Part shown: one piece after another, positions 3,001-53,543 of the stretch
Position numbering within the stretch: position 1 is the stretch's first letter
Layout of the letters: every line of letters starts with the position of its first letter
NCBI GenBank assembly: GCA_001724265.1
Contig: MEDY01000660.1
Coordinates: 62,001 to 126,000, forward strand
Length of the DNA: 64,000 nucleotides
Reading direction: 5' to 3'
DNA from: Rhizaria sp. SCN 62-66
Lineage: Eukaryota
Notes under the pieces: model-generated
What the model was told of the DNA's origin: nothing
What the model saw: only the letters and a program-made list of their open reading frames with translations
Databases searched by the model: none
Program-made: the position numbers and the translations under genes

Positions 3001-3086
3001 CCAACTCCGTGACTGAGAATGCGGCTGAGAATGCCGAGACGGAGGCCAAGAAGACTGTGGCTGGTGAAGTGTCACCGGCGGCTTAA
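1..3086 (+). CDS. Dual-specificity protein phosphatase with long low-complexity N-terminal region (5' end outside window); exons <1..54, 432..3086
   Basis: C-terminal DSP domain: LYLGG, WADVE acid loop, VLVHCRKGRSRS (CX5R), IAYTM, RPSVLPNFGFLQQL. GTACGC donor at 55 and CAG acceptor at 431 join in phase 0 (acceptor choice less certain). Acidic, poly-S and KKDKKD tracts. TAA stop. Confidence 0.8.
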
Positions 3087-26614: not shown

Positions 26615-26937
26615 AATGAGCTTGTCAACAAAATGTGCGCCCTAACGCAAGAAACGAAATTAAATTTCGGGAAGTGTAAGATTTGGCAATTAGAGATTTA
26701 TCGATACTTTTTCGAAATACCGAATGAAATTCGTTGTATACACTCCTTTAGTTGATCTCAGTGTTAGTTTGCAACTTGAAAAATAATTCACGCCCACCGC
26801 AACTTAAACTTGTGGTCGATTCAAACATGAATCACATATGCAAGCTTAGATAGGTCAATTAAAGTTGTGTATATGTCTCTACAAATAAAGAGTGAGAAAA
26901 TTAGGTATCGTCAAGTATTAAAGTATCTCAGTGTTGT

Positions 26938-29900
26938 TTAGGTCAGGAAGTCGTCGAAACTCATCGCCGCGGGCGCCGGCTTCTTCGGGCCTCCATTGAC
27001 ACCAGGCTTCTTCCGACCACCGATGCTGTTGCTCTCTGCAACCGGGGCAACCTCAGAGGCAGCAAAAGCAGCAGGGACAACGGGCGCGGGCGCAGACCCA
27101 CTCGGCTTGCCCTCAAACGCCTGTTGCTGCTGAAGCTGTTGCGCTCCGCGACCACCACGGCCGCCGCTGCCACCACCGCGCCCGCTGCCGCCGCGGCCTG
27201 CGCCACTAGCGTTGCCATTGCGCGCAGACTCTGCCTCACTTGCAGCCGAGAAGTTATATTGGTCAGTCGTTGGCGCAGCCGTAGTCGGCGTAGTCACATA
27301 AACCTTCTTTGGGCCGCCACCGCCTTGTGCAGGTTCTTGCTGTTGTCCCCGATTGTTCGTGGCAAAGCCTTTGCTGCTGCGATTGTTATTATTGCTGTTG
27401 TTGCCGGTATTGTCGCTATTGTTGTTGTTGCTCTTGTTGTTGCTGCTGCTGTTGTTGTTGTTGCTGTTGTTAAATTTGTTCCCAGCACCACGACGGTTCG
27501 CGTTTACAGTTGCCGTCGACGTCGCTGTGACTGCCGTTGGCGATGTCACGGTGTTGTCGTACGCGTCCAAGTCCTCGTCATACATGCCGTACACGCCGTC
27601 CTCAGCCGCAAACATCGGCGCTGCATCATCGGGCTCCAGTCCGCCAAACTCAATCTCACCAGCGGCAGCGGGCACCGACAGCAGCAGCGACAGTGCAGCG
27701 TCATCAACGCCACGGCCCTTCGCTGCAGCTGCAGTTAAACCCGCGTCTGCGTTGGGACCTACATTCGCGCTCGAGCCAGAAACGATATCTAGCGTCTTCG
27801 CTTGCGCTTGTGCTTGTGCTTGCATGCGTGCAGCAACAGCTTTGGCCCGCTCCTCGCGCGTCTTCGCGTCGGCGGCCCGCATGCGCTCCTGTTCGGCCCG
27901 CTGCGCGCGCAGCCTCGCGGCGCCCTCCTCGGTTTCGGCCTCAAACAACGCCGCAGTAACCGCGACGGCCTTCTCTGACACGGCCGCCAGGTCCAGCTCG
28001 GGCTGCTCGATTTTCTGACGCAGCAGCCTGTGCAGCAGCGCGCGGAGGTTTTTGAATAGCACGGCCACGCGCGGCCGCGTGCGCAGGTCGGCCCAGCGGT
28101 CCACGGTGGCCAGACCGGCGGCGTGCGCAACCTCGACCGTGTTGCCAAAGAGCAGCAGCGCGTACGGCGAGCATGGCGACAGGTCGCGAAGGTACGTCTT
28201 GCCCGTCTTCATCTTCTGCTGGAACACGAAGTAGCTCCCCGGCAGGTTGAGCTGGCCGAAGACCGCCGACGTCGGGTGCAGCGCCAGCTCGCCGTCGCGC
28301 TGCGTCATGAAGCGCAGCACGCTCGCCGCAGTCGCGGGCTCGAAGATCTTCTGCGCGCCCGACGTCACGGGCGCCGTCAGAGCAGCGTTAACTTCGTCGG
28401 CAACAGCCTTAGCAGCTGCGGCGGCTGCGGCGGTGGCAGTTGCGGCGTCAAGAGTGCCACTGTTGGTCGATGCCGCTGCGTTGCTGTTGTTAAAGAGGTT
28501 GTTGCTATTGGCGCGGGGCGCGAGAAGCTTCGCGAGACGCGGGTCCTGCTTGAGTGCGCCGAGCCCTTCAACACGCACAAGGTTGGGATACAGCCCAGCG
28601 ACGATGACGGCCTGCACGAGCGAGTAGTTGTCGCTGTTAGCGTTGAGCGTCGCGCCCGTAGCCTCGCGCACGCCGTCGCTGCCGGCGCCGCCGCGCGCCG
28701 CCGCGCGGGCGACGCTGCGCGCGGTCACGCCCGGCGGCGCGAACTTGATCGACGACAGCAGCTCCGCGAACTGGCGCTTCATGTCGCGCATCGTCTGCAG
28801 CGTGGGCACCGAGAGGAAGTATTTGGTCTTGTAGATGCCCTCGTCGCCGCGCGCGCGCGCCCGCAGCCAGCCCTCGTAGGCGTGCAGCAGCGTGAGGTGG
28901 TCGGACGCCTCGTGCGTGAACCGCCGGCGCGCGTCGTCCGCGGCGTCGCGCCTGTCAAGGGGGGCGTAGAACGGGCTGCGCAGCGACATGCCCGCGGCGA
29001 CCGTAAGCACAGGGTCAAGACAGCGGAAGATCGCGCCGTAGAGCATCATCTTGCCAAGGCGCACGTCGACAGGCAGCGACGCCAGGTGGTAGCCCAGCGG
29101 CGTGAGCGTCTCGTGCCCACGGTCCTGTTCCAGCGCGCGGATCGACTTGAGGCCGAGCAGCGTGTGGCGCAGCGCGGACCGCGCGGGCGGCTCGAGGGCC
29201 TTGGACAGGAACTGCTCGACGTTGGCGTGGCCGAGGATCTTGACATGCAGACACAGCGCCTCGAGCGGGGCGCGGAGCATCTCGGGCAGCTGCTGCGGGG
29301 GAAACTCGCGCTCGTAGCGGGCCTTGGTGAAGAGGTGGTAGCAGAGACCGGGGCGCACGCGGCCGGCACGGCCGGCGCGCTGCTTCGCGTTGGCCTGGGT
29401 CACCCTGTGATAGCGCAAACACAATGTCAAGAGAAAGTATGTGACTGGCGATGTGAGAATAACATCAAATGAAATTGACAAGCGGAACAACAAAAATGAT
29501 ATCAAAAGCGCAAAAAGCGTAAATATATGAAAACTAGTTGTTCTTAAAACGTACCATGTAGTGACGAGTGAGGACATCGCCGACCTCGGGTCATAGCGCA
29601 TCTCCTTCATCTTGCCTGCGTCAATCACCACTGTGATGTCGTCGATCGTCAGCGACGTCTCGGCCACGTTGGTCGAGACGACAACCTTGACCGTGCCGCG
29701 GGGCGCCTTGACGAAGCACTTGTGTTGGTCCTCCGAAGAGAGTGCGGAATGAAGCGGGATCATGAGCAGCGTGCCCTGTTTGCCCAGCAGCCTGTCCTGC
29801 TGCATGTACTTCATGCAGTCCATGATCTCGGCCAGTCCGGGCACAAATACCAGCACGGCGCCGTCGTCGCCCTGCAGCCCGTTGCGCACAACGTGAGCGA

Positions 29901-32900
29901 CCAGCGCGGCGATGCACTCGAAGTTGACCTTCTCCTCGTCCATCGCGGCGATGGTGCGCATCGTCTTAGGGCGGAACGTGCGGCCGCTTTCGCTCAGCGC
30001 GCCCGCGGCGGCCGCAGCGTCGAGCTCGGCCTGGTCCTCGGCCACCTCGCGCATCTCCGCCGCCGCCACGCGCCCGTACCGCCCGCCGAGCGACTGTGCA
30101 AGCGGGTTATTCCGGCCCGCGACCGCGCCGTCGGCGCTGCCGTGGGTCTCGGGCGCGTACTGCGGGGGCCGGCGCGCGCCGCCGCGGCGGAGAAAAGGGG
30201 AGCCGTCGGAGATCTCGTAGTTGCAGTCCTCGATGGCGTCCTCGAGGTAAAAGCGCTGGACGGGGAAAGTGCGGCCGGGGACGTCAATGACACCGCAAAT
30301 CTAAGCAAGACGGAAACAGAATATGCAAGAAATTATTCGTAAAACATGAGTTTAATGTGGATAAAAGAGTGAATACAATACGCTCTTTTCGAAATTTGTA
30401 ATGTGAACAACGCGTACCTCAGGTCCGCCGAAATACCTCACGAAAAGCTCCGCATCGATGGTGGCAGACATGAGTACAAGCTTGACATCAGCCCTGCGCT
30501 TGAGCAAGTCCCTGAGCAGGATGAGCAGAAAGTCCGAGTCAATCGACCGCTCGTGCACCTCATCAATCACAACGTGCGACACGCCCTCGAGCAGCGGGTC
30601 TCCCTCAAGCTGCCGGATGAGGATGCCGTGGGTGCAGAATAGCAGCTTGGTCTGCGCGCTGCGCTTCGCCTCGAGCCGGATCTGGTACCCGACCTCGCTG
30701 CCCACGGTTACCGCGCGCTCGGCCGCCACGCGTTCCGCCACAGCGGTCGCGGCCAGACGCCGGGGCTGTGTGCAGACGACATTGGCAAGCCCGCCGCGAC
30801 CGCTCTCGAGCAGCGCATCTAACAAGAACTGCGGCACTTGCGTGCTCTTGCCGCAGCCAGTCGCGCCTGCCACGACGACAACGCGGTGGTTCGCCACCAG
30901 CGCGTCGATCTCGCCGCGCATCGCCATCGACGGTAACGGCGCGCGCGCCTTGAGCATCTTTTGGTACGCTGGCGTCGCCTGCCGCTTGCGGTGCTGCTCC
31001 AGCGCCTTCGCGCCCGCGGCTTTGACAGCGGGGTCCGCGAGCTGGGCCTCGTAGCGCGCCGCTGAAGCCGCATAGGACGCCGCGTCGGCCGCAGCCTGTT
31101 CCTCGGGGCTGAGCACCTTAGCGCGCGCCAGCACCGCTGCGCTGCTGCTAGACGCAGCACTGTTGGGGTCGACGTCGGCGGGCACTGCGCCGTCCCACAG
31201 CGCGGCATCGAACGGATCGCCGGAGGCGTCCTTAGAGTCGCCATCCAGCGCGTCCTCGTCGTCCTGGCCGTCGCTCTGGACGTCAGCGCCATCGTCGCCG
31301 TCCTGGACATCGCCGTGTGCGCGCGCCTCGGCCCTCTCAGCCGCGCGCGCGGCGGTCTCGCGCTCCGTGTGCAGCGCCAGCGCAGCCGTCGCCGCTGGCG
31401 TCAGCGACAGGAACACGCGCATCAGCTCCGCGTTCTCCGTCCGGATGCGTGCGACGGCGGCGCGGTGGTGCGACTGCGCGCGGGCAAACTCCTCGGCGGC
31501 CTTGGCGGCGGCGGCCGCAGCGGCTGCGGCCGCAGTGGTGCTCTCAACGTGCGGGTCGCGGCCGATGGGGACTGCGGCGGAAGAGCTGCCGGTCGTCGAC
31601 TTAAAGATGGCTGCGTAGTCATCCTCTTCTTTGTCGCCAACGTCCCCGTCGTCGTTACTGTCGTCGTCGTCGCTTTGCTCAGGAACATCAGAAGAAACTG
31701 ATTTCTTGCTCTTCTTGTCCTTTTTCTCTTTCTTGTCCTTTTTGTCTTTCTTATCCTTCTTATCCTTCTTGTCAACAGCGGCGGCGGCAGCGATTAAGTC
31801 ATGCGGCCGCGGCGGCGCCGGCTCCCGCTGCCACATGGCCTCTGCCCTAAGCAGCGCCGCACGCAGCTCCAGCTCCTTCCCAGCGTCCCCCAGCGCGCCC
31901 GCGAGCCTTGCGTTCTCGATGGTGTCGTTGAGCGCGAGCAGCCGCGTCACGCGCGCGCGCTGCTCGCGCAGCTCGCGCTCCTCCTCACCGTCAGCGCCCC
32001 ACGCCTCGCCGGCCCCGCCCGCGGCCGCTGCGCCCAGCGCGCCGCCGCCGGCGCTCTCGCGCGCAAGCTTGGCCTTGACGGCCGCGCGGGCCGCCGCCTC
32101 GACCGTAGCCTCGGCCTTTTCCTTGGCCTTGGCCTTGGCCGCGGCGGCGTCCTCGGCGCGCTTTTTGGCCTCCTGCGCGGCCGTGGGCGGCGCCGCGACG
32201 GGTCCCGCGCCGCCGCCAACGCGGAAAGCGTCCTCGACGCGGCCTAGAGCGGCGTCGGCATTCAGCGGGGCGCGCACGGCGGCGGCGGCCGCGGCGGAGC
32301 GCAGCGCCTCCGAGAGCTCGAACACAGCGCCGGCGCCCGCGGAGGCCAGCGGGGTGGTCGCGGTCCAGAGCAGGCGCGTGAGCTCGTACTTAGCCGTCGC
32401 GGAGAGGTACTTAGACTTAACCAGCACTACGGGGCGCGAGTGCGGGTAGTCACAGCGCAGCAACAGCGGGCGCTCAGTCGCCGTATCACCTGTGCCTGAT
32501 GCCGTCGTGTCGGCTGCGCTCTGTGGCACACGCGGGGGCGGGAGCGCTGCCTCGGGCTCGGCCTCCGCGGCGGCCTCAGCCTCAGCAATCGCGTCCTCCG
32601 TGGTGTCCAGTGCGGCCCGCGCGGCGACGCCCGTGGCGGAGCCCTTGCGGTACCCGTGAGCCTCGCGTCCCCAGACCTCCATAGTAACACCCCGGGGGTC
32701 GTCCTCGCCCCGGGCCGCGGCGCGCGCGGCAGCCTCGCCCCAGTTGTCGCGGTTGTCATCCTTGTCTTTGTCGGTCTTAGCCACGTACAGAGCCTTGAGG
32801 TCCAGCTTGTCGCTGCCGCGCACCGGCTTCATGGCCGGCGCCTTCGGCTTACTACTGCTTGAGCTCGGTTTGCTGTCTGTGTCTGTGTTGGTGGACTTGT

Positions 32901-34659
32901 TCGTTTTGAATGCGTCGGGCATCGCGATCTTGAGCTCGTGCAGCCCGAACGCCACGACGGTGGCGCCCCACTCGTTCTTGCCCACCGTGCCGGGAAACGT
33001 CGACGCCAGCACAATATCCTCGTCGGCCACGGTCTCCGCCCAGTCGGGTGCCCAGAGGCCCTTGGACTTGGACTTCGCCGACTTCGACGTCGCCCTCGTG
33101 CCAGAGGCAGCGTCTTTACTACCCCCGTCGCTGCTGCTGCTACACGTGCTCTCTGTGAGCTCCTGTGCGTACTGATACGTCGGCAGCAGCCGCGGCCGCT
33201 GCCCCTTGACCGCCGCGCCGCCCAACGCAGCCTCGCGAGCCGCGGCCTCGGCCTCACTGCCGTTGCTGCTTCCACTGTTATTGTTGATCGCAAACCAGTG
33301 GTAAAGCGTGTGCAGCGCGGGGAACACGTCCCAGCCGCTGGCCTGCAGCGCCTCAGCGACCTCGCGCCGCGGGAACCCCGCCTGCGCGAGCGAATCCACG
33401 AGCGCCATCCGCCGTAGAGCGCCGGACTGGCCGCTGCCACCGAGCGCCGCGGCCTCGCTGCTATCAGCCAGACCGCCATCGGCTTTGTCGTCAGCAAGGT
33501 TAAAGCTGAGCATCTCGAGCCCGCCCTGTTTGGAGCCCATAAACCGCTCCGGCAGCGCGGCCTCAGGCACGTGCAGACATAACCAGTCCAGGCACTGCGT
33601 CACGCGTGCCGCGGCGAAGCCCTCGAGCGCGCCCGCGTCGCCCAGCGCGCCCGCGGCGGCGCGCAGCTCCTGAAGGAACTGGCGGTGCGCGGCGACCAAT
33701 GCGGCGGGCGAGGGCGGCGCCGCGGCGGCCAGGGCGGCGGCGACGTGCGCGGGGCGAAAGCCGAGGCGTGAGAGCCCGGCCGACACGCGCGCCGTGATCT
33801 CGGCCTGCCAGCGCTCGGCCGCGGCCACGCGCGCGGGCGGAATGCCGGCAAGGTCCGCCGTCGGCGCAGGGGCGGCGCTACTCGCGCTAAGGTTAGCGCT
33901 AGTCGTTGGAGTGCTCGGCTTGTTATCGTTGCCGTCATCATTGTCGCTGTTGGCGTTGTCATTGTCATTGTCAGAGTCGGAGTCGGAGTCGCCGAAAAGC
34001 GGTTTGGCCTCTGTCGTCTGCCCCGTGGTCAGCGCCTGCTGCTCCGCGAGGCGGGACTCCTCCGCGCTAGCAATCACCTCGAGCACGAGCTGCTCGCTGG
34101 CGGCAGACATAAACACGGCCTCGGCCGCGCTCAGCCGGGCCGCGGCGGCGGCGGCGGCGGCCTGCCGGGCCTCGTACGCCGCCGCGGAGCCGGGGATGGC
34201 CGCCAAAGAGCCCCTTAACTGCTGCTGGGGGCGCCTGCTGTTGTTGTTGTTGTTGCTGTTGCTGCCGGTTGCGGTGAGGGCGGGCATGGCGTTAGTGAAA
34301 GGGTCGTTCTCGTCCTCGCCCCAGTACACGCGCTGGCGCGACGACACAACGGGGGCCTGCTGCATCCGCTGCTGCTGCACAAGTCTGTGGAGAAGTGCGG
34401 CAGAGCGCAGCAAGGGCGCAGGGGCACGCAGCAGAGAGGAGAGAGGATGCGCAGTGGTGGCGTTGATGGGCGATATGGGAAGTGACAGGGACAGATAAAG
34501 AAAAGAAAAGTAGGGACAGTGAGTCGTGGACAGGGAGTTAAGTCGGACGCTTGAAAATACAGAGATATAAATGTGTGCTATAAGATATGGCACGTACTTT
34601 TTCTCCTCTTTGAGTTTGCGTGCAGCCTCGCCGCCGCCTTTATTGAAGCGGGGAGGCAT
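26938..34659 (-). CDS. DEAH-box RNA helicase of the DHX57/DHX29/DHX36 group, ~2,413 aa; exons 34659..34598, 34384..30418, 30300..29555, 29404..26938
   Basis: GATGCGKSTQVPQFLL, CTQPRRLAA, DEVHER, MSAT, PGRTFPV, STNVAETSLTIDD, QRAGRAGR, HA2 (LTPLGYHLASLPVD) and OB-like C-terminus. UBA-like (LDWLCLHVPE) and RWD-like (DYPHSRP) segments N-terminally. Three GTACG..AG introns in consistent phase. TAA stop. Confidence 0.9.
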
Positions 34660-35115
34660 CTGTGTGGTGAGGTCTGTGACAGGACGATGTTGGAAAAGAT
34701 AGTTAGAAAGATGAAAATAGGTTTTCATATGCCACCTAATTAATGGTATAGAGAAAATTACGTCATAAATTTAGAATCAAAGTCTTGTGTTAACAGACGG
34801 ATACTTCGTGGCACATGATACACTTAAAGTTTACGAGTCACGCACCTGCCCTCTCGCCGCAGAACCCCACCGTCCGACATTGAGTTGAAATTTCATCAAT
34901 ACCGACACATATAAACACTCCGTTACGCATATAACTTACTAAACTAATGTATCTCACTAATTTATCCCAGAATCTTGTTGTATAATTGATCTCACTTGAA
35001 CAAACAACTCTCTACGCCTAAATTCTCACAACCTCCCATTCTCCACGTGCTTTCCATCCCGTATCCCCGCCCGTCGCTCGCGTCCCCCTGCCCTTGCTCT
35101 ACGCAGCGCGTTCGC

Positions 35116-38375: not shown

Positions 38376-38423
<48 letters not shown>
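38376..38423. repeat. Poly(A) tract, ~48 nt (poly-U in the probable 3' UTR of the minus-strand receptor gene)
   Basis: Directly visible homopolymer. Confidence 0.9.
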
Positions 38424-38424
<1 letters not shown>

Positions 38425-38822
38425 ACGCGAGCGCTACCCCCAACTCTAACTCAAACACAAAAAGGGACAAGCACTCGCACGAGCCTTGCATTAGAGCATG
38501 TGTCACACTCTTGAGTCTGAGCACGAGCGTACACATCGTCACACGCAGAACCATGAGATACTGCGCACAAATCGCGAAGTACTGCATCAAATCATACGTA
38601 ACGATGTGTTAATACTTATGATAACAACACTCTCGTAATTCTTATATGGCTAGGAGCAGGCCGCTGACGTTCGCAACTATAATAAGTAACTTGAACCGGT
38701 GCAACCACAGAAACACAAACAGAAATACAAACAGGAACACAGAACAGTCACACAAGACGGCACAAACAGGAATAGAACAAACTGAAGATGATATCCGACA
38801 TCGGAGTAACCGGCAATAACAT

Positions 38823-38864
38823 GGCTCGGACGTAGCTCCCATAGGCTTGGACGTAGCTCCCATA
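38823..38864. repeat. 21-nt tandem duplication (GGCTYGGACGTAGCTCCCATA x2)
   Basis: Two adjacent copies with one mismatch, ~90 nt downstream of the receptor stop codon. Confidence 0.85.
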
Positions 38865-38954
38865 GTTCCCTCGGTTCACATTGCTACTTCGTTCAGATCC
38901 TTTTATCACTCCTGAGTCAGACACCATAGTTGTCCCGAATCACGTAGCATCCTC

Positions 38955-41900
38955 TCAGAGATTGGTGTTGTCCCTGCGCATGCCGATCGTCTGGCCGGCC
39001 GGCTTGGACAGCAGACGCCGCTGGTTGTTGGTTGACCCGCGGCCCACGCCGTTCTGCGCGTACGGATTCACCACGGCGCCAGCGCCCCCCGCGCCGCCCG
39101 CTCCTTCTCCAGCGCCAGCGCCGGCGCCGCCCGAGGCCGCAGCGGCGGCCTGCACGGCAGCGCGGCGCTCGGCCTCGATCTCCTGCTGGCGCGCGTGCTC
39201 GGCGCGCGCGGCCGCCGAGGCGCGCTTGTCCTGGTCGTACTTGCTCACCATGGCCTCGTAGCCCATGGGCTGGGACTTGTAGATGCTGTCATTGTTGCTG
39301 TTGCTGCCATTGGCATTGTTGTTGGTGTTCATGTTGCTGTGGGACATGTCGCGTTCGCCGCTGGCGTTGCCGTAGGTGCTGCTGCTGTTGTACAGCGAGT
39401 TGCCGAGCTGGTCCGTGCTCTGGTGCATGGCGGCCATCTCGACGTCACCCGCCGTGCCACCGCCGCCGCCGTACATGCCCGCAGCGGCCGCGTCGTCGCC
39501 GCCGGAGCCGACGTAGGAGCCCTGCGAGGCCGCGTTCATCTGGCTGCCGGGCTGCGAGCCGTAGCGCGCGTTGGAGCGGCCGAACATGCCGCCCGCGCCG
39601 CTGGAGCTGCCCTGCAGCCCGCCCTGGCCGCCCGCGGTGGCCGCGGCAGGGTTAGCCGCGGAGGCGGCGGGCGCGGCGCCGCGGGGGCCGCCCGCGGTGG
39701 GCAGCGGCGGGCGTGGCGGCACGGGGAGCGAGTTGGAGGTGAGTTCCTGCTCCAGCTTGCGGATGTGGCCGAGGAAAGCCATGATCTCGGCAGGGGCGAG
39801 CGAGTTGACGGAGGTGCCGCCGGTGACGGTGACCTCTGAGGGCATGTCGCTGGCCTGCTTGAGGCGGAAGAAGCGCGGGATATAGACCACGAGCACGGTA
39901 AAGATGACGACGTAGATCACGGCGACGGCCTGGACAATCTTGACGCCCGTCGGGATGCGCTCATTGAGGCTGAAGATGATGGCGAGCGCGATGATGGCGA
40001 CGAACGTGCAGTTATAGACGGCGAGGCCGATGTACGAGGACTCGTTGAAGTTGGACTCGACGCCACGGGTGCGGACGACGAGGTAGATGCCCCAGACCAG
40101 GAGCGCGGCGTTGAAGACGATGAGCACGATCAGGAACGTGGTGTCGTCGGACTGGCACTTGAGCTGGGCCTCGAACACGTCAGTCAGCATCAGCGCGCGG
40201 CGGTACTGGGGGTCCATAGCCTAGACAAAGTGTTGTAAGCGGAATATATGACACAGTGAATGAAAACTTAGAAAATGGATTCAAAGAAAAATACTCGTAA
40301 ATTGGTAAGTGTGCATACGTACTTGGAAGACGATCATGATAGCGAGGTTGACCAGCGCGATGAGGCCGAGCCTCTTCAGCAGGTTGAAGTCGGAGAAGGC
40401 GCCCTTGGACAGCGCGTGGAGCGTCTGTGAGTTAAAGATGGCGTGGATGCGGTACGTGCGGATAAAGAGCGAGCCGAACATGAGGACGTAGCCGAAGACC
40501 ATGAGCCACATCGGCGCCATGCACGGCACGGCGTCTTCGGGGATGACCGTGAGCAAGGCGGCCAGCGAGCAGCACACGCCGCCGAGACAGATGAGGTAGC
40601 CAAAGTTGGGCGACGTCGCGCGCACGGCACGCTCATTGCGCTTGATAAAGATCATGATGCCGATGGTGATGCACACAAGCAGCGCGATAGCCGACAGCAC
40701 GTAGATGGCGATGCGGCCGCCCTCGGACAGCTCCCAGATCTGGAGCGCCTCGCCGCAGCCGGCGCCGCGGAGCACCTCGAGCCCCTTGAATGGGCCCTCG
40801 GTCGGCACGGCGCACGTGCACAGGCGCAGGAAGCAGGTGCCGAGGCCGGAGCACGAGTTGCACTGCGTGATGTTGGGACTGAGGTGGAACAAGTCGGCGA
40901 AGTTGGTGGGCGGCGAGAGGCAGATGTCGAGGTGGGTGTTGCACAGCGCGGCCTCTGACGCAGTCAGGTTCGACAGCACAACGCGGCAAGACTGCGCAGC
41001 CATCGTCTCAAGCGGGACCTCGTTTTGGAGGCAGCTGGCCATCTCCTCCTCGGACGCACCTGCCAACGGCGAGTTCTGTCGGATGTGGTCGATGAGCAGG
41101 TCCGTGTCGACCGAGGTCGCGACGTTGCTCAGCGCGGCTTCGAACATGGTGTAGCCGTTGCCGCCCTGGTACAGGAACTGGTTAGTGGCGACAGTGTAGA
41201 TAGCCGTGCTGTCGAGCGGGCCCACCACACCCGTGGTGGGGTGCGCGATGCGCGTGTCGACGAGCTGCTGGCCGATGTCCAGGTTCGTGTTGCGCGAGCG
41301 CGCGTAGACGATGTTGGTCTGGCCGAAGCCACCGTCGTTGGGCAGCCCGATAGACGTCTGCAGGACCGCAATGAGCTGCTCGCCGGTCATGCGCAGCACG
41401 AAGACGGTGTTGCGGAACGAAAGAACGGACATGACGTTGGCCATGGTGATCTCGCCGGCGGGCAGCGGCGCGCGGAGCGAGCCGGAGTTGATAAAAGCGA
41501 CGTTGCAGAGCGTGTTGTACAGCGACAGGCACGCGCGGCGGTACGCGTCGACGACGACGCGGCCCAGCGCGCAGTCGAAGTTTCGGCAGCCAATAGTTGT
41601 CAAAGACGGGTAGTCTGGCAAGGACGCGTTGCCGCGGGCGTCAGAGTGCTCCAGCAGCGCGCTGCCGATGACGGACTTGTACTGTTCCTCGATGACGCTC
41701 GTCGCGTTCAGCATCATATTCCAGGTCGCGGAGACAGAGGACATGTCGTCCGACGCGGACAGCGTGGTGATGATGTTTTGCGACGGGTTCGAGGCGTTGA
41801 TGGCGATCGACGCCGTTTTGGCCACAGTGTCCCAGTCGAGTCTAAATGAGCCGATGGTCTCGCCGTTGCTGTCGATCGTTGCCATGTACACCGTCTTGTC

Positions 41901-42740
41901 ATACAGAGAAGTGACTCTCGTGACACCAAAGGCTTCACCGTCGCCGTGGAAAAATAGGTTGATGCCGTCGACCTCCTGGGCAATGCGCCTCGCGTCACTA
42001 GGCGGCAAATCGGACACGACTACGACAACGTCTGCGTTGGGGTGCGCAGCGCGGGCGCGGAAGACGTTAATACGGATGCGGAAATCGTCCGACAAACCTG
42101 TTTCAACCGTGGGTGCAATACCCTTGGTGGAGGGGAACGTGAAGGCGTTGGCAGGGACAAGGCCGACAAAAACAACCTCGACGCCTGCAATCGTGCGCAC
42201 CACCCACGGCGTGACGAGCCCGTCGGGGTAAGCCGCGCTGAGGGGGACGCGCCGCTCGGACAGCTTGATATCATTCTGGTAGTCGATGTTGGATGACAGA
42301 ATATCCGTGGTGCTGTTGATCAAAGTGAGGAATGCCGCGAGGTCGCTTGTGCCGGCAAACATGTCGGCGTAGCCAAGAGAGATGATGTCGTAACGGGCGT
42401 TGTTGATGCACTTGGCCATGGTGGCGTAGGACTGGAGCGACCCCCACCACGAGGAGCCTGTATCCAGCACCACCGAGTTGGCGGTCGAGTGCGTCTCACG
42501 GAACTCCTCGATGAACATCTGGCGCTGCGCGCAACCACCGTGGCAGAGGTTACTGGATGCGGGACTGATGGAGGCGTCCGCGATAGAGCAAGCGGCGCCC
42601 GACGCGCGGGGCATGACGCCACCGCGGATGGAGCCGGTGTAGGCGAACCAGAGCTGTTTGATATCGGCGACGGCGACGGAACTGAGCTGCGACAACGCGA
42701 GAAGCGCCATCAGCAGCACTGAAAGCCGCACAAAACCCAT
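38955..42740 (-). CDS. Class C (GABA-B-like, 7tm_3) GPCR with degenerate 5'-nucleotidase ectodomain and EGF-like linker, ~1,227 aa; exons 42740..40323, 40220..38955
   Basis: Signal peptide MGFVRLSVLLMALLALSQLSSVAVA. 5'-nucleotidase-like motifs CHGG, VLDTG, LSSNI, NSGSLR, LSFRNT, TNQFLYQGGNGYTMF. CSGLGTC..CTC..GAGC linker. 7TM motifs VRATSPNFGYLICLG, LMFGSLFIRTYRIHAIF, FNESSYIGLAVYN. One 102-nt GTACGT..TAG intron. TGA stop. Confidence 0.85.
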
Positions 42741-43558
42741 CGTTGCAAAAGGGATTGATACGGTGCGGCACCGAAAAGAAAGTTCTGTTCGCGTGACGAG
42801 TGGTGCCGAGGCGCGAGTGCGAGCCCGAGTGCGGTAAGAGGAAGAAGAAAGGGGCTGCGTACACGCGCGCGAATGACGTAAAAAAGGATAAAAATTCGGA
42901 AGAAGTGAGAATATAATGAGAGAGGCAATACCAAAAAGCAACATAAAGTAAGCGCAAAGCTAGAGACGCGTCCTGGGCGCCGCATGAAGCCATGAGGTGC
43001 GCCCATGCTAACGACGCCCCAAACCGCGAAATTTTGCCGGCGCATACCACAGCTTAGACCCTCATGGTGCTAACATAAAAGAAGAACAAGATGATTGATG
43101 CAGCGCTGTATCCGGGCAGCAAATAAATATCAACTTGACGACAAAGAGGGCCTCCAAACACGCTGTAAAGCACGCTACATACTCCGTTCAAACTCCGACA
43201 GCTAGTCTCCTTTGAGTCTGAGCGGCGGGCTCGAGAGAGCGCGAGACAAAGAATTGGGGACACATAAGAGGCGTTTCAGGAGGCTATTTCACATGATATG
43301 CAAGTGCAAGAGAATAGAGAACATATATGGTTATGTATAAAATGTCTGGTGTATGCGTGCGTGTCTAAAAAACACATCAACATCAACTTTTACAACAGCA
43401 AGCAAGCAGCGACTCTTACCAGCCTGTCACTGAGCCACCCGCCGAGGGGATTTGACACCACTGCAGCGTTTACCGGTTAAGGTAGTGACGACTGTGACTT
43501 GATAGGCGAGAGCTGAGAGGGCTCCTGCCATACTGGGGTTCCGGTTGGGCTGATTTGC

Positions 43559-46428: not shown

Positions 46429-47300
46429 AGGCCGCGTCAGCGGACTCTCGAGCGCGACTCTTGTGAGTCGACGAAGCACTCTCTAAGTACCTCCCTTAGA
46501 GTAGACGGAGAGCGTGACCCGCTCAGCCTCGCCTTCACTCTTTGAGAGAGTGAAGAGAATGAGCGGGCTCTGCGAAGCCATCCTCTCCGCGACTGGCAGA
46601 CAATGATGATCCCTTTGTTTGTTTTAAGAAAAATAAATTTTAAGCCTATTTTGTCCATGTCCATCTCTACTTGTATGATGCATCGCTAACGCTTGTGAAT
46701 AACTTGAATTTCTAAAAACTGTTATATATGGATCAAAAGGTGTGCGGTATCCCCTTACAAAGTGCTCATAACAGCGGCCGCTTCAAAGCAGAGAAGCTCG
46801 ATATGGGTTTGCAGCCAGAAGTGCGGTAGGTACAAAACGGTGGGTTTGTTTGAAACGGGCTGTGCGGTGCATGTGGACGTGCAGGCAACGCCAGATTTCA
46901 CCTAAAGATGAAATACTATTTTTATATTTTTGTTACACTTGTGTCTTTTGAATAAAAGGCGGTAATCACTCGCGATGTGTGCATTTTCTTCCTCTTAACT
47001 CGACCCTCCACACTCACGTTGTTTTCCCTGCTTGCTCCTTCTGCCTCGCTCTTCCACAGCCTAGGCCGTCTGTTTTCTCTTGCATACGTCTTTTGTGCAT
47101 ATTTTCCTACGCAGCGAGCAGCCTCCGCCCCCGTCGCCGGCCCGCTCCGCCGCCGCGCCGCCCCGCAACCGTTCTTGCCAGTCGCGGCCAGTCCCATTCT
47201 CAAGAACCCCGATCACTCTTTCACTCTCTTTCCCCATCTGTGCGCACGCGGGTCTCTTTCCCTCGCCACCTGACTCCATCACCGCGTTGCCCCAGTCGAG

Positions 47301-47932
47301 ATGAACCCTAACGACTCGACGGACCTCATCGACGACGACATGCTGCAGGCCGCGGCCACCGCGGGCCACACAGCGGCCGCCAAAGACCACCACCACCATA
47401 ACAACAGTAACGGTGCGTACAGCCACAGCGGCAGCTACCCGACCCGCAACGACCGTAACAGTTTGGCCAACAGCGCCATTCTTGCCGCCGCGGGCGCCAG
47501 CTTCAACGCCGCCGCCGCCGCCGCCGCCGCCGCAGGCTCGTCATCGGCGTCGTCGTCATCAGCGTCCTACGCCGGCGAGCCCCCTGTCGACGAAGACAAC
47601 ATGATGCGTCTGCAGATGCGCCGCAACTCGATCACCTCGCGCCTCCAGGACCAGTATCTTTCCTCAGGCTCCGGCTCCAGTCGCGTCGCCAACAACAACA
47701 ACAACAACAACACCACCACCACCACCTCGCCCCCGCTCGTCTCCCGGCTTGCGCACCAGAGCTCTCAGCAACTGCAACAGCAACAGCAGCTCGGTGGCGG
47801 CGGCGGACAGCAGCAGGCCGCCGCCGCGCTGGCGGCGCTGCACCGCGGCACGTCCATGGCCAGCCTCGGCGGCAGCGCCAACATCAACACCGCCGGCTCT
47901 GGGCAGTTCAACGCTGCTGCTGCAGGTATTAC

Positions 47933-47963
<31 letters not shown>

Positions 47964-48394
47964 TCGCTGCACCACAACGCCTCGCCCAGCATGGCGTACC
48001 GCAGCGCGCACCTCAAGGCGTTCATGGTGGGGCCCCCGGCGCCCGGCGCGGCGCACGCTGTCAGCCCCGCCACCGCTACCACTAGTGGAAGTGGCTTGAA
48101 CGCGTTTTCATCGTCGTCGTCATCGCGCTCGCTGCCGGCGGTCGGCAAGGTGCCCGCCCCCGGCCAGCAACAGCAGCTGCAGCAGCAGCAGCAGCCCAAG
48201 TCACAGTCCCCGCCTCAGCACTATGCCTACAACAGCACGAGAGCGGCCAACGCCAACGCCGCCGCCGCCGCCGCGGGCTCGTCGAGCAAGTTCGCCTCTG
48301 TCCCCATCGCCCTGTCGCCGCCCCTCAGCACCGGCGCGGGAGGCATGCCGCCGCTGGCGCCCTCAGGCGGCGGCGCGACCGGTCTGCCCGTGAC

Positions 48395-48446
<52 letters not shown>

Positions 48447-51400
48447 AGGCCGCCCGTGCTGAGCTACACCGGCAGCGCGGGCGCGCACATCCACAACAGC
48501 CCGCCGCTGGCCGCCTCCGTCGCAGTTACAGGCCCCCCGGTCGCGGGCGCGGTCGGTGCCGGCGCCGGAGGCAGCCCGCAGTCGCAGACGTCGCAGGCGC
48601 TGTCTCTGTCGTCGGCCTCGCAGTCGCGCGCGGCCCCGCTGTCGGCCACAGTGGCCACGGGCGCGGCCGCGGTCGCCGCCACGGCCACCGCGACCGCGGG
48701 CTTTGCGCCCAGCAGCGCCACAACGCTCTCGCACTCGGGTAGCACCGCCAGCGGCTCGCTCTCGCAGTCGTTCACGCAGTCGCAACATGCGCCCGCGCCG
48801 GGGCTGGGACTGGCGCAGGGCCAGACGCTGGCGCAGGGCCAGGGCCAGCACCTGTCTCCACCGAGCGCGAGTGTGGCCCTGGGCGCGAGCCCGGCCGGGA
48901 GCGTGGGGCAACTGCGCAGCGGCGGCGGCGGCAGCATTGCCAGCAGCCGCGGCTCCGGCTCAGGCTCTCTCAGCGTCAGCGTCAGCGCCCATAACACCAG
49001 CGGCGGCGGCGGCGGCGGCGCGCTTGCCGCGGCCAGAGGGCTGTCACCGCTCACGGGCAGCGTCAACGCTGCCAGCGCGAGTGCGAGCGCGAACAGTACG
49101 ATGCCGCCGCGGCCGCCGTATCTGGTGACGTCGCCGACCAACGCTAACTACAACCTTGCCTACACCAGCAGCAGCAGCAGCGGCGGCGCGGGGGCCGGGT
49201 TGGCGGGCGCGAGCGGGAGCCCCATCGGCGCGCTCAACATCACCGCTGGCGCCATGGGCAGCAACAACGCCAACAACAACGCCAACGCCGTGAACCCCGC
49301 CGTGGCGGCGGCGGCCACCAGAGGCGCCGGCCCCAGCTCGCCCGGCGTCGGCGCCGGCGGCAGCACGGGCTCCGGAAGCACCCAGAGCCTCAACCTCAGC
49401 CTCGGCGGCATGCCGCATCCGCTGGGCTCGGCGTCCAACCCCAGCAACAACAACAGCACGAGTAGTCTTCCCAATACAAACAGCCTGCCCAACGGCGGCA
49501 GCCTCCCCAATGCCGCGAGCGGCGGCGGCGGCGGCAGTCCTCCGAGTCTGGTGAGCCCCTTCAGCATCATGGCAGGCGTGCCCTCGGCAGCCGCCGTCTC
49601 CGCCGCCAACGCCGCGAGTGGCACTGGCTTCGCCCCGCAGCAGGGGCTAGGGCTAGGGTTCACCGCGAGCGGCGGCAGCGGCAGCGGCGGCGGCGGCGCG
49701 CAGTTCCCGGACCTGGGGGCGCCGCAGGGCTTCGCGTCACAGCAGCCCGGAGCGGGGGGGCTCCAGCAGCAGTCGCTGCAGCGCCAGTCGAGCATGCAGT
49801 ACTACGCGGGCCCGAACGGGCTCAGCCCCTCGGGCCTGGGCATGGGCTCCGTCGGCTCCGTCGGCGGCGGCCTGGGCTCCCCGCTGGGCCGCATGTCACC
49901 CGACCCCGTCTACGCCTCGGCCGCCGCGGTGACGACAGTGCTGGGGCCGTCAATGTCGGTCTCCCGCCGCCCGCACTCGCGCACGGGCTCCACAGCCTCG
50001 GCCGCCACGCTCGCGGGCTCGGCCGTGGGGCTGGCCGGCGACCCCGCGCTGCTGTTGTCGCCGCGCGACGCCGCCTTTGCGCTCCACGGCAACACAGGAT
50101 ACATGGTCGCGGCCGGCGCCAACGGGGGCGGGCCGATGATGCTCAACGGCCGCGCGTCGCGGGGGACCTCCCCGGGACAGGCGCTTCACTACGCGTCGCT
50201 CACGGCCGCGGGCGGCGCGGGCGGGCCAGGGCCGCTGCAGATGCAGATGCAGATGCCGGGCTCGGTCACCGCGCTGGGGCAGCCGGGCTCTGTGGGCGCG
50301 ATGAACCAGACTGGCAGCATGGTGATGATGCAGATGCCGCTCAACGCCTACCCGCCGGGCTCCCAAGCCCAGGCCCAGGCCCAGGCGCAACTGCAGGCGC
50401 AGATGCAGATGATGACACCGCAGCAGATGTATGCCAACAGCGGGATCGCCGTCGGCAACATGAGCGACCAGGCGGCCGCGCAGGCGCAGGTCGCGGCGCA
50501 CCAGCGGCACATGCACCTGCAGATGATGCACATGAACCAGGTCCACGCCGCGCAGGCGCAGGCGCACGCACAGGCCCAGGCCCAGGTCCAGGCGCAGGCG
50601 GGGCTGCTGCGGTCCGGCAGCCCCAAGACGGTGCTCAACAACAGCGGCGACGCGGCTGGTACCACGGCGGGGGGCAACGTGACGACGCAGCTGGCCAAGA
50701 CCAGCAGCAGCCACAGCAGCATGAACGGCAGCACCGGCAGCGGCCCGGGCTCAGGCTCCGGCGCCGGCGCTGGCAAGGGCATCACCAAGACGCCCTCGTC
50801 CCTGTCGCAGGCGCAGCTGGTCATGTCCCCGCCCAAGGCGCTCTCGATGCTGCCGCCGGGCGCCGCGGCTCCGGCCCCGGTGGTCGTGACGCTGCCCTCT
50901 GCCGCGGCGGCCGCGGCCTCGGGCACCGCGCCGCCTGTGTCGCTGCCGCTGGGCCCCACGCCCTCGGCGGCCGCTCTGACCGCGGGCGGCGTCGAAGCGG
51001 CGGCGCACCGCGCGTCGGCGCTAGCCGCGGCGGTGGCGAGCCAGGACGCCGCGGCCGCCTCGGCGCAGCAGAACTACGCGCGCCGCGGCAGCACCACGCA
51101 CAGCCTCGCGCTCGAGGCGCTTTCAGCCGAGGGCGCCGCGGCCTCGGCGGCGGCGGCGGCGGCGGCGGCCGTGTCGCGCGTGCTGATCCAGCAGCAGGCC
51201 GACGCCGTGGCCTCCGGAGACCCCGTCGCGATCGCCGCGGCAGACGCGGCGGCGGCCTCGGGGGCGGCTGCCGCGGCCGCCGCGGCCGAAGTCGCGGTCT
51301 CGGCCGCCGCCGCCGTCGCGGCTGCCACGGCGGCCGACGCGGCCGAGGGCAAGAGCAACTCGGACAGCGCGGCCGAAGCTGCGCCCGCGGGGTCCGGCGC

Positions 51401-53543
51401 CGGCTCCACCTTGGGCGGGGCCAACATCCCGCCCGGCGGGCTCTCGGCCGCCGTGCTCACGCGGCTGGGCTCGACGGACGCGGTGATCCGCGCGACGATG
51501 ACGCCCCGCACGCGCGCGGCGACGGCGGCGGACCACACCAAGGCGCTCGAGGCGCGCAAGGAGCAACTGCAGCGCGAGGAGGAGGCCGCTGAGGAGGAGG
51601 AACGCGTGACGCTCGCGCTCTTCAAGGAGCTTGCGGACACGGCCAAGGAGGACGTTACGGGCGGGTTCAACAAGTACACACGCACCATGGCGCTGGCGGG
51701 CCGGCACTCGTTCTGCACGCCGGGCGACCTGTACAACCTCATTATGATCCCCCACGACGGGCTGCTCATGGCGCACATCGCCAAGCCGCTGCTGCGCATC
51801 GTCGACTGCCGCCGCAGGGAGGAGTACCTCGTCGAGCACATCCGCGGCGCCATCCACCTCACCGAGTGCACCACGGGCGCGGCGCGCAACGCGCTTAACA
51901 CGACGCCGCTGTTCGAGCAGCGCGCGGCGGCGTTGGACCCGCGCAACTCGATCGTCTTCTACGGCGCCGAGGAGGTCGAGGAAGCGGGCCCCACGAACCC
52001 GTTGGCCAGCCCGGCCACCGGTGCCGGCGGGGCCACCGAGAGAGGTGGCGCCGCGGGCGCTGCGGGCGCGGGCGCAGGCGACACGGGCGGCAAGAAGGTG
52101 CGCTACACGAAGCTGCACGCGAAGCTGGTGCAGGTGCTTGCAATGGTTGACGACGGCGTGTCGCGCCTGCTCACGCTGCGCGGCGGGCTACGGCAGTTCA
52201 AGAAACAATTCCCGTTTCTCGTGTGCAACATCCCGCACGACGTGGTGCCCGACCTGGAGGGCATGCAGCAGCAGCAGAACAGCGAGGCCGGCAACTACAG
52301 CGGCGGCGGCGGCGGCTACGAAGGGTCCGAGTACGGCGGCTACAACAATGCGCCGTCGATCGCAGGCAGCTGGCAGTCGCTGAACCACCTGCAGTCGGGC
52401 GCTTTTTCCCCGGCATCGCCCAGCCGCAAGCGCTCGCCGTCGCGGCGGCGCGACTTCTCGGACCGCGCGGCCAAGAAGCAGAGCGCGATCAACAACAGCG
52501 CCGCCAAGGCGGACCGGCACAACGCGGCAGCGCTCGCGGCGCAGCACGGCGCGCGCGGCCACCACGGCCACCACGGCAACAGCCAGAACACGCCTGCGAC
52601 CAACGCCCAGTGGGGCGCCTCGCCGGGCCACAGCGGCGGCGGCAGCGCCAACACGCAGCGCGGGCGCGGGCGCGGGACGCCGGCGATTCCGGGCGTGACG
52701 ACCGCGGGCGTGATGAACGGGCTCACTGAGGACCAGCAGCGCTACGGGCGCGACTACAAGGGCCCGCCGATTGCGCGCGCGCTCGCAATGGGGTACTTGG
52801 CGCCCGTGCGCGGCCGCCACGCTGTGTACTTCTGCTCGTTCCAGATTCCGCGGTCCGAGGTTGCGTTCCTCCGCATGCTGCACCTGTGCCAGGGCGACGG
52901 CGCGGTCGACGAGGCTGAGTTCGCGGGCTCGCTCCAGAACGGACACAAGATCCCCGGCACGTCGGCACTTGAGTTCGACGCAGACCTCAACGTGTATCCC
53001 AACTTGATTCTCGATCCGTGGCTGTTTTTGGGTGACCAGCGGTGCTCGTGGTCGCTGGCGTCGCTGCTGGACCTGCAAATCACGCATATTATCAACATTT
53101 CGACCGATATCTGCAACTACTTCGAAGACCACCCCGCGGCTCGACTGGCAAACGACAAGACGATCAAGTACCTCACGATCCGCATGCACGACGATCAGAA
53201 CTCTGACATCCTGTCCCAGTTCGCGATGGTGTTCAATTTCATCGACATGGCTAAGAAGACTGATCAGAACGCCAAGATCATGGTGCACTGCCAGATGGGC
53301 ATTTCGCGCTCCGCCTCGCTTATCATCGCCTACATCATGCACCTCACGCGTCAGTCGCTGCAGGACACCTTTTACTACGTCAAGATGCGCCGCTACATCG
53401 TGCAGCCCAACCGCGGCTTCTGGGTCCAGCTGGGCGCAGTCGAGCGCCAGCTGCGCGGCGGCCTCACCACCGTCTACGACATCCTCGAGGCAGGCATGCG
53501 GCGCGAGGAAACCAGCGCCTGCAACTGTTGCACCATCGCGTAA
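47301..53543 (+). CDS. MAP-kinase-phosphatase-like protein (rhodanese + dual-specificity phosphatase), 2,080 aa, single exon, C-terminal CaaX
   Basis: Rhodanese-like IVDCRRREEYLVEHIRGAIHL...LRGGLRQFKKQFP. DSP motifs YPNLILDPWLFLG, MHDD acid loop, VHCQMGISRSASLIIAYIM, RYIVQPNRGFWVQL. Ends CNCCTIA-TAA. Confidence 0.88.

Follow-up and report, generated by a model that had tools for sequence, protein, structure and literature searches.

A class C G protein-coupled receptor with a degenerate 5'-nucleotidase ectodomain in a rhizarian contig, a candidate sensor of nucleotides or nucleosides

Here we describe a receptor gene in a 64,000-nucleotide stretch of DNA from Rhizaria sp. SCN 62-66 (assembly GCA_001724265.1, contig MEDY01000660.1, positions 62,001 to 126,000 of the forward strand; hereafter the window, in whose numbering all coordinates are given). 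The gene lies on the minus strand at 42740..38955, consists of two exons and encodes 1,227 amino acids (806 + 421) with a single terminal stop. The product starts with a signal peptide, which is followed by a 5'-nucleotidase fold of two lobes, a linker with ten cysteines, a GABA-B-like seven-transmembrane (7TM) domain of the class C G protein-coupled receptors (GPCRs), with a low-complexity tail at the C-terminus. Its ectodomain is a pseudoenzyme of the CD73/UshA type as judged from the residues at its catalytic site, and hydrolysis of 5'-nucleotides is predicted to be absent. We put at about even the chances that this dead nucleotidase ectodomain is the nucleotide or nucleoside sensor of the receptor.

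The catalytic site was assessed in a MAFFT L-INS-i alignment of the ectodomain of this protein (the query) with the ectodomains of 30 relatives of the same architecture and with 22 hand-picked canonical single-domain enzymes, 21 of which match the Pfam family Metallophos and all of which match 5_nucleotid_C. Eight positions were scored. From their roles in CD73 and UshA, we take these to be the six ligands of the dimetal centre (in motif I an Asp and a His, in motif II an Asp, in motif III an Asn, and one His each in motifs IV and V) together with the His-Asp pair that serves catalysis in motif III. Each of the eight is kept in 19-22 of the 22 canonical enzymes, whereas the query keeps 0/8 (S37, R39, S96, Y124, A125, F128, D244 and D267). 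Motif I reads YTGSIR for HTNDxH (aa 34-39, 42624..42641, minus strand like all features of the gene), with R39 at the place of the metal-ligand His; motif II reads DTGS for DAGD (aa 93-96, 42453..42464); and motif III reads GYADMF for GNHEFD (aa 123-128, 42357..42374), which removes both the catalytic His and the catalytic Asp. The motif IV His is replaced by D244, and the GGHxH of motif V by HGDGE. HMMER alignments to enzymes in the PDB independently give the DAGD/DTGS and GNHEFD/GYADMF pairings.

The C-terminal lobe of the query keeps R386 (in GCRNFDC), N418 and R423 (both in NSGSLR), F442 (in LSFRN) and F522 (in NQFLYQGGNGY). The positions of F442 and F522 are presumably those of the base-stacking aromatics of 5'-nucleotidases, and the Arg and Asn positions those of further pocket residues. 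Among the fused proteins (the query and its 30 relatives), R386 is Arg in 24/28, N418 is Asn in 29/30 and R423 is Arg in 27/30, while the first stacking position is Phe in 28/31 and Tyr in 3/31 and the second is Phe in 16, Tyr in 13 and Trp in 2 of the 31. Position 528 is Asp in 27/31 fused proteins and Asn in the query. Over the fused family as a whole, conservation at the pocket positions is about equal to that in the active enzymes. The initial annotation of this DNA, made from the sequence by eye, had listed the catalytic-motif replacements and had named the motifs GCR, NSGSLR, LSFRN and QFLYQGGNGY, with both stacking Phe, as retained; all of the replacements are reproduced in the alignment with the 22 canonical 5'-nucleotidases, and all of the retained motifs are confirmed there.

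The relatives come from an exhaustive HMMER search of 1.84 billion representatives, which gave 4,944 proteins at E <= 0.001, of which 25 reach E <= 1e-30. Architecture was scored with query segments in the best 149 matches, the unspliced form of the query itself being excluded, and 30 among these 149 have a class C 7TM domain preceded on its N-terminal side by a nucleotidase C-lobe, so that the gene is not an isolated case. A word-index homologue search turned up only P0003, the unspliced self, and P0004. In Pfam searches of the 31 fused proteins, 7tm_3 and 5_nucleotid_C are each found in 31/31 and Metallophos in 0/31. The fused proteins keep at most 3/8 catalytic positions (3/8 in P0070; 2/8 in P0010, including DAGD), and neither the Asn of motif III nor the His of motif IV or of motif V occurs in any of the aligned family members. 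In eight of the 31, motif I is left without aligned residues (some of these proteins are clearly fragments), and counts for the N-lobe are therefore given out of 23-26.

Several replacements recur across the family. Arg takes the place of the motif I His in 15/23 fused proteins versus 0/22 canonical enzymes, and Phe or Tyr that of the catalytic Asp in 22/25. Position 394 is Arg in 14/29 fused proteins and Asn in 15/22 enzymes, and a family-specific Cys pair is formed by C404 (22/28) and C412 (22/30). Members with a named source come from Platysulcus tardus (P0010), Pyxidicula operculata (P0056) and Chloroparvula japonica (P0067), which we take to be a stramenopile, an amoebozoan and a green alga, respectively, and from an MMETSP transcriptome (P0066). 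The combination of a dead site and a kept pocket holds over a family present in several eukaryotic supergroups. One cluster in the ESM Atlas, made up of 72 eukaryotic proteins with PF00003 and PF02872, in which diatoms are the commonest label, has a score of 0.82 and serves as a lead only. The automatic Joint Genome Institute (JGI) name of several members, '2',3'-cyclic-nucleotide 2'-phosphodiesterase (5'-nucleotidase family)', is misleading, since these members lack the catalytic site. Many of the matches have another architecture, with two to four tandem nucleotidase C-lobes and no 7TM domain (P0016 and P0028 with four copies, P0023 and P0030 with two, P0051 and others), and five proteins (P0029, P0031, P0034, P0046 and P0091) have the same Cys-rich linker and 7TM domain with the nucleotidase undetected, and may be fragments or a sensor-less subfamily.

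Within the ectodomain, the signal peptide (approximately aa 1-25, 42666..42740) has a hydrophobic segment at aa 6-24 by hydropathy and a helix at residues 3-17 in the structural model. It is followed by the N-terminal lobe (aa 26-333, 41742..42665), a long inter-lobe helix placed from the secondary structure of the model (aa 334-354, 41679..41741), the C-terminal lobe (aa 355-569, 41034..41678), which holds the pocket positions R386, N418, R423, F442, F522 and N528, and the Cys-rich linker (aa 570-668, 40737..41033), which places 99 residues with 10 Cys between the C-lobe and TM1. Over the whole ectodomain there are 6 N-x-S/T sequons and 18 Cys, the 10 in the linker falling at aa 570-662. Pfam finds 5_nucleotid_C at aa 384-534 (E 6.5e-24; 85.3 bits, the cut-off being 23.6), and the PDB sequence matches of the C-lobe are the Thermus 5'-nucleotidase 2z1a (2.7e-14), snake-venom 5'-nucleotidases, CD73, NadN and UshA. 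The E-values of the domain matches lie well outside the range of chance. No match of the query to Metallophos, ANF/PBP or NCD3G is found in Pfam at E up to 1. The linker belongs to no Pfam family in the query; among the 31 family members NCD3G, the Cys-rich domain that precedes the 7TM domain in class C receptors but is lacking in GABA-B, is found in one, Ephrin_rec_like in two and a TNFR-like domain in one.

The fold of the N-lobe emerges from structure prediction. An AlphaFold model of aa 1-672, made with an alignment of 49 sequences, has a mean pLDDT (predicted local distance difference test) of 86.5 and a pTM (predicted template modelling score) of 0.80. Foldseek returns 83 matches to the PDB at E <= 0.001, the top one being 2z1a (E 2.1e-42, TM-score 0.76, target-normalised), followed by many CD73 entries, and the alignments span about 600 columns against enzymes of 507-529 residues, so that both lobes are matched. 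Because the structural match extends over both lobes and no Metallophos profile match is found, the N-lobe of the model is assigned to a metallophosphoesterase fold, devoid of metal and catalytic residues, that has passed beyond recognition by sequence profiles. The initial proposal of a 5'-nucleotidase fold with both lobes is thus borne out by the superposition of the predicted model on CD73 and the Thermus enzyme. The domains it had expected are found in part by the expected means: 5_nucleotid_C and 7tm_3 are detected by Pfam, whereas the metallophosphoesterase-like part escapes the profiles and is seen by structure instead. A homodimer prediction with two copies of the C-lobe and linker (aa 335-672) returned 'no answer' with scores of 0.00/0.00, which speaks neither for nor against dimerisation.

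The membrane domain is divided by the intron into TM1-TM4 (aa 669-806, 40323..40736) and TM5-TM7 (aa 807-921, 39876..40220). The 7tm_3 profile is matched in exon 1 at aa 672-805 (profile positions 4-136, 77.1 bits) and in exon 2 at residues 17-115 of that exon (profile positions 153-250, 60.9 bits), against a cut-off of 33.5 in both cases. Apart from the N-terminal signal-like segment, the hydropathy peaks group into seven helices at approximately aa 681-919. The best PDB match of the 7TM domain is GABA-B2, to which TM1-4 (1.1e-9) and TM5-7 (9.1e-8, the segment being aligned to this receptor) both match ahead of mGluR, GPR158 and GPR179; 7she and 8d1b, which are receptors of the mGlyR/GPR179 type, are among the weaker matches. 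The description of this domain as GABA-B-like is supported by these PDB matches. The cytoplasmic tail (approximately aa 922-1227, 38958..39875) is rich in Ala, Gly and Ser, which are abundant over the last 292 residues, and has short blocks in common with P0004: IYK..P....MVS..Q.K with a charged helical stretch after it, VVNPYA, and, at the C-terminus, R+L..KP.G.T.G.RR. These conserved blocks are candidate docking or trafficking motifs. When exon 2 is compared with P0004, BLASTP aligns the tail blocks only and not TM5-7, which phmmer aligns at E 2e-52.

The whole coding region (38955..42740) starts with the ATG at 42740. Exon 1 (40323..42740, aa 1-806) stays open to 40323, with the boundary CAA|GTACGT, and carries the signal peptide, both nucleotidase lobes, the Cys-rich linker and TM1-TM4. 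The intron (40221..40322) is 102 nt long with canonical GT..AG ends (GTACGT...CTAG), and the frame of exon 2 (38955..40220, aa 807-1227 plus the stop codon at 38957..38955, comprising TM5-TM7 and the tail) opens at 40220, directly after ...CTTTGTCTAG. The intron contains an in-frame stop, and the read-through product, which ends 13 codons on, is the 819-residue P0003 of the protein collection. The splice is accepted on the strength of the GT..AG sites, the continuity of the 7tm_3 profile, which exon 1 leaves at position 136 and exon 2 takes up, soon after its beginning, at position 153, and the gapless colinearity of the junction with P0004 (1,248 aa, 59% identical; IVFQ|AMDPQ in the query, IVFQ-VMDPQ in P0004). 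The fusion itself is independent of the splice model, because the signal peptide, both lobes, the linker and TM1-4 all lie within the 806-codon exon 1. Both the spliced gene with its 1,227-aa product and the sharing of one exon by the enzyme fold and the first TM helices had been proposed at the outset, and both are reproduced, the latter with the 5_nucleotid_C match and 7tm_3 positions 4-136 falling together in exon 1.

Public sequencing runs were searched with the segment 38700..43100. A polyA metatranscriptome run contains three identical contigs (38847-39386, 42215-42421 and 42479-42773), which cover both ends of the gene. A second run, the kind of which is not recorded, contains a contig at 39718-42451 with zero differences from the window; it retains the intron and is therefore probably DNA. 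A third run contains nothing matching this segment. The runs that do match all come from one study, labelled activated sludge metagenome, which makes an uncultured protist, represented by an environmental assembly alone, the likely source.

The mechanism that we propose for the receptor runs as follows. A nucleotide, or possibly a nucleoside, would bind between F442 and F522 in the pocket of the C-lobe, close to R386 and R423, and the dead N-lobe would shut over the bound ligand. R39, at the former metal site, could touch the phosphate in replacement of the metal ions. Since the ligand would not be hydrolysed, the closed state would persist, and the Cys-rich linker would relay the conformational change to the 7TM domain, and so to a G protein, by analogy with flytrap closure in other class C receptors. 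The lobes of 5'-nucleotidases are known to open and close by a large rotation, and open and closed states of the enzyme family are both attested in the titles of PDB entries matched by Foldseek. The Arg gained at the former metal site and the frequent Arg near the first pocket Arg favour the hypothesis of a phosphorylated ligand over a bare nucleoside. The idea of a ligand-binding, signalling ectodomain appears somewhat strengthened by the family-wide conservation of the pocket and by the motif I Arg (15/23). A wider form of the proposal, which we offer tentatively and at less than even chances, would make these proteins an ancient and widespread purinergic GPCR class, independent of the animal receptors, in which a dead, non-hydrolysing nucleotidase clamshell senses extracellular nucleotides, with Arg residues, chiefly the one at the place of the motif I metal-ligand His, gripping the phosphate instead of the lost metals, and allows protists such as stramenopiles, amoebae, green algae and choanoflagellates to sense lysed cells, prey or dissolved organic phosphorus.

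Several observations weigh against the sensor proposal or its wider form. The query departs from the consensus in two pocket motifs, having Asn for the Asp of GGDGY (GGNGY) and SF for the PF of PF.N. The motifs N.GG.R, PF.N and GGDGY may also be kept for folding, and the conservation of the C-lobe alone is therefore no proof of a nucleotide ligand. In active enzymes the phosphate is gripped largely by the metals, which are gone here. In the Foldseek comparison, entries titled 'closed' fit the model at a TM-score of 0.72-0.76 and those titled 'open' at 0.53-0.57, a preference that may only mirror the many closed CD73 entries learned by AlphaFold. No RNA contig from the runs searched with 38700..43100 crosses the intron. 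Finally, a maximum-likelihood tree (45 rows, 534 columns), in which one branch with a Shimodaira-Hasegawa-like approximate likelihood-ratio test (SH-aLRT) value of 96 parts 23 fused proteins from 22 canonical ones, came from a quick search and is unrooted, with eight fragmentary fused rows dropped, the motif columns kept and several long branches; it is compatible with a single origin of the fused dead clade and is no proof of it.

Of the other explanations, one that we regard as rather unlikely keeps the receptor and changes its ligand: the ectodomain would bind phosphate, polyphosphate, a sugar-phosphate or an organic anion, or would act as a protein-protein or adhesion module, with the C-lobe residues kept for folding. 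The loss of every metal ligand that holds phosphate would fit such a change, the new basic residues (R39 in 15/23, R394 in 14/29) would suit any anion, and the Cys pair C404/C412 together with the other changes, including the two off-consensus pocket motifs of the query, marks a remodelled domain. Against this stand the two stacking positions, which are aromatic in 31/31 fused proteins, and the Arg and Asn positions, whose conservation, at about the level of the active enzymes, exceeds what a constraint on folding alone would be expected to give. The same retention of pocket residues, and of a two-lobed domain, across very distant eukaryotes is hard to reconcile with a mere spacer. This makes it improbable that the ectodomain is ligand-free, serving as a dimerisation or scaffold module or a tethered modulator of a 7TM domain activated otherwise, for instance through a ligand bound within the transmembrane bundle or, as for GABA-B2, through a partner subunit, although the best 7TM matches are indeed to GABA-B2, the subunit that does not bind agonist, and the five proteins with linker and 7TM and no detectable nucleotidase, which may be fragments, would agree with such a role.

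Two further explanations bear on the enzyme and on the gene itself. An ectodomain that still acts as a hydrolase with different residues, destroying or converting a nucleotide signal or making an agonist locally, could be imagined from the partial sites of P0070 (3/8) and P0010 (2/8, with DAGD). Calcineurin-like phosphoesterases require a dimetal centre for their mechanism, and with none of the eight positions kept in the query, no Metallophos match in any of the 31, and the motif III Asn and the motif IV and V His present in no fused protein, we consider residual hydrolysis very improbable. An artefactual fusion, whether through mis-assembly or in a pseudogene undergoing decay, is hardly credible. 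The window seemingly comes from an environmental assembly, and the RNA contigs leave the intron uncrossed, but the nucleotidase, linker and TM1-4 share one unbroken exon of 806 codons, the frame is intact over 1,227 codons, the DNA-like contig of another run agrees over 39718..42451 without one difference, and the architecture is common to thirty independent clusters from several sources. Sensing of a nucleotide or nucleoside by the dead ectodomain thus remains the reading that we prefer, at the even chances given above.

The neighbours of the receptor gene, on both strands, are ordinary eukaryotic nuclear genes, encoding dual-specificity phosphatases, a protein kinase, a DEAH-type helicase, a JmjC protein, a ribosomal protein of the L7Ae/S12e family, Sec61-alpha and an ArfGAP, and none of them suggests an operon-like tie to the receptor. 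The switches of strand in the gene order, together with the intron, speak against a trypanosomatid as the source, in spite of the long GC-rich open reading frames. No second copy of the receptor is found within the window by local tblastn, and Rfam gives no match on the window. On the plus strand, 48 consecutive A (T in the sense of the gene) stand unbroken at 38376..38423, about 530 nt past the stop codon, in CA-rich intergenic sequence. Two adjacent long open reading frames on the minus strand (26938..30300 and 30352..34770) look like one RNA helicase of the DEAH/DHX type, the upstream frame having DEAD and UBA_DHX29 and the downstream frame Helicase_C, HA2_C and OB_NTP_bind; what divides the gene is probably a short intron or a change of frame. 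A very GC-rich frame of 3,605 codons on the minus strand (15824..26641), without a Pfam match at E <= 1e-5, may encode a giant low-complexity protein. Two large proteins with dual-specificity phosphatase domains are encoded on the plus strand at 90..3086 and 47274..53543, the latter with Rhodanese and DSPc, which is the layout of MAP-kinase phosphatases.

The initial annotation had presented this architecture as a candidate new type of receptor, and this claim of novelty holds only in part: the architecture is reported in the relevant part of a 2025 eLife paper (PMC12716839; preprint 10.1101/2025.04.15.649019) and is contained in the ESM Atlas cluster with PF00003 and PF02872. The gene is therefore another member of a known, uncharacterised kind. 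In its passages on these domains, the eLife paper notes 5_nucleotid_C and Ephrin_rec_like in Glutamate-family GPCRs from choanoflagellates and from other organisms closely related to animals, and not in animals. Those receptors share with the present family the same Pfam pair, with 5_nucleotid_C N-terminal to 7tm_3, and the Ephrin_rec_like domain, which 2/31 of the proteins studied here also have. They differ in what is recorded of them, the passages concerned giving the presence of the domains in opisthokont relatives only, with no mention of an N-lobe, catalytic loss, a ligand, a function or a wider occurrence. The relevant passages of a 2013 survey of diatom GPCRs (PMC3727952) do not mention a nucleotidase domain, and a preprint on pennate diatoms mentions, in the part concerned, a 5'-nucleotidase gene that is unrelated. 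No functional or pseudoenzyme study of fusions between a nucleotidase and a class C GPCR was found in the literature. We also did not find in print the presence of a whole nucleotidase rather than the C-lobe alone, the uniform loss of the catalytic site with a kept pocket and an Arg at the former metal site, or the extension of the family to stramenopiles, amoebozoans and green algae.

To our knowledge, class C GPCRs whose ectodomain is of the nucleotidase type have no known ligand, and little is known of the sensing of extracellular nucleotides by protists outside animals, plants and Dictyostelium. If the sensor proposal is true, these receptors would show clearly how a pseudoenzyme was taken into service as the module of a receptor, and they would be a second replacement of the flytrap in class C receptors, besides the receptors with Cache domains. 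They would also offer a testable handle on the sensing of nucleotides or organic phosphorus in ecologically important groups such as diatoms, other stramenopiles and green picoalgae. The pattern across the family (site lost, pocket kept, Arg gained) turns the idea into a concrete question of binding and mutagenesis. Should the ligand be another one, the gene would still be one further member of an architecture listed in the databases.

Compared with known systems, the ectodomain shares with CD73 (4h2i), UshA (1ush) and the Thermus enzyme (2z1a) the two lobes, the inter-lobe helix, the pocket positions and the CR..C Cys pair. It differs from them in having none of the eight metal and catalytic residues and no Metallophos match, in its additional C404/C412 pair and Cys-rich linker, and in being anchored by a 7TM domain instead of having a glycosylphosphatidylinositol (GPI) anchor or residing in the periplasm. 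With the known nucleotide and nucleoside receptors, namely the P2Y and adenosine GPCRs and P2X channels of animals, P2K1/DORN1 of plants and cAR1 of Dictyostelium, it may have a function in common, the sensing of extracellular nucleotides. We know of none among these with a sensor of the nucleotidase fold, the ligand being bound in the 7TM bundle, a lectin domain or the channel ectodomain. GABA-B and other class C GPCRs with a flytrap resemble the receptor more closely in layout, since its 7TM domain is nearest to GABA-B2 and follows a large N-terminal bilobed sensor for which clamshell closure is a plausible trigger. The sensor here has an unrelated fold, no ANF/PBP1 domain being found with Pfam. 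A class C receptor without a flytrap has a precedent in mGlyR (GPR158) and GPR179, which in the passages of PMC12716839 that deal with them have a Cache domain in its place. These are confined to animals and use a different sensor fold, and like the receptor described here they combine a class C 7TM domain with a non-flytrap sensor followed by a spacer that is Cys-rich or resembles epidermal growth factor (EGF) domains.

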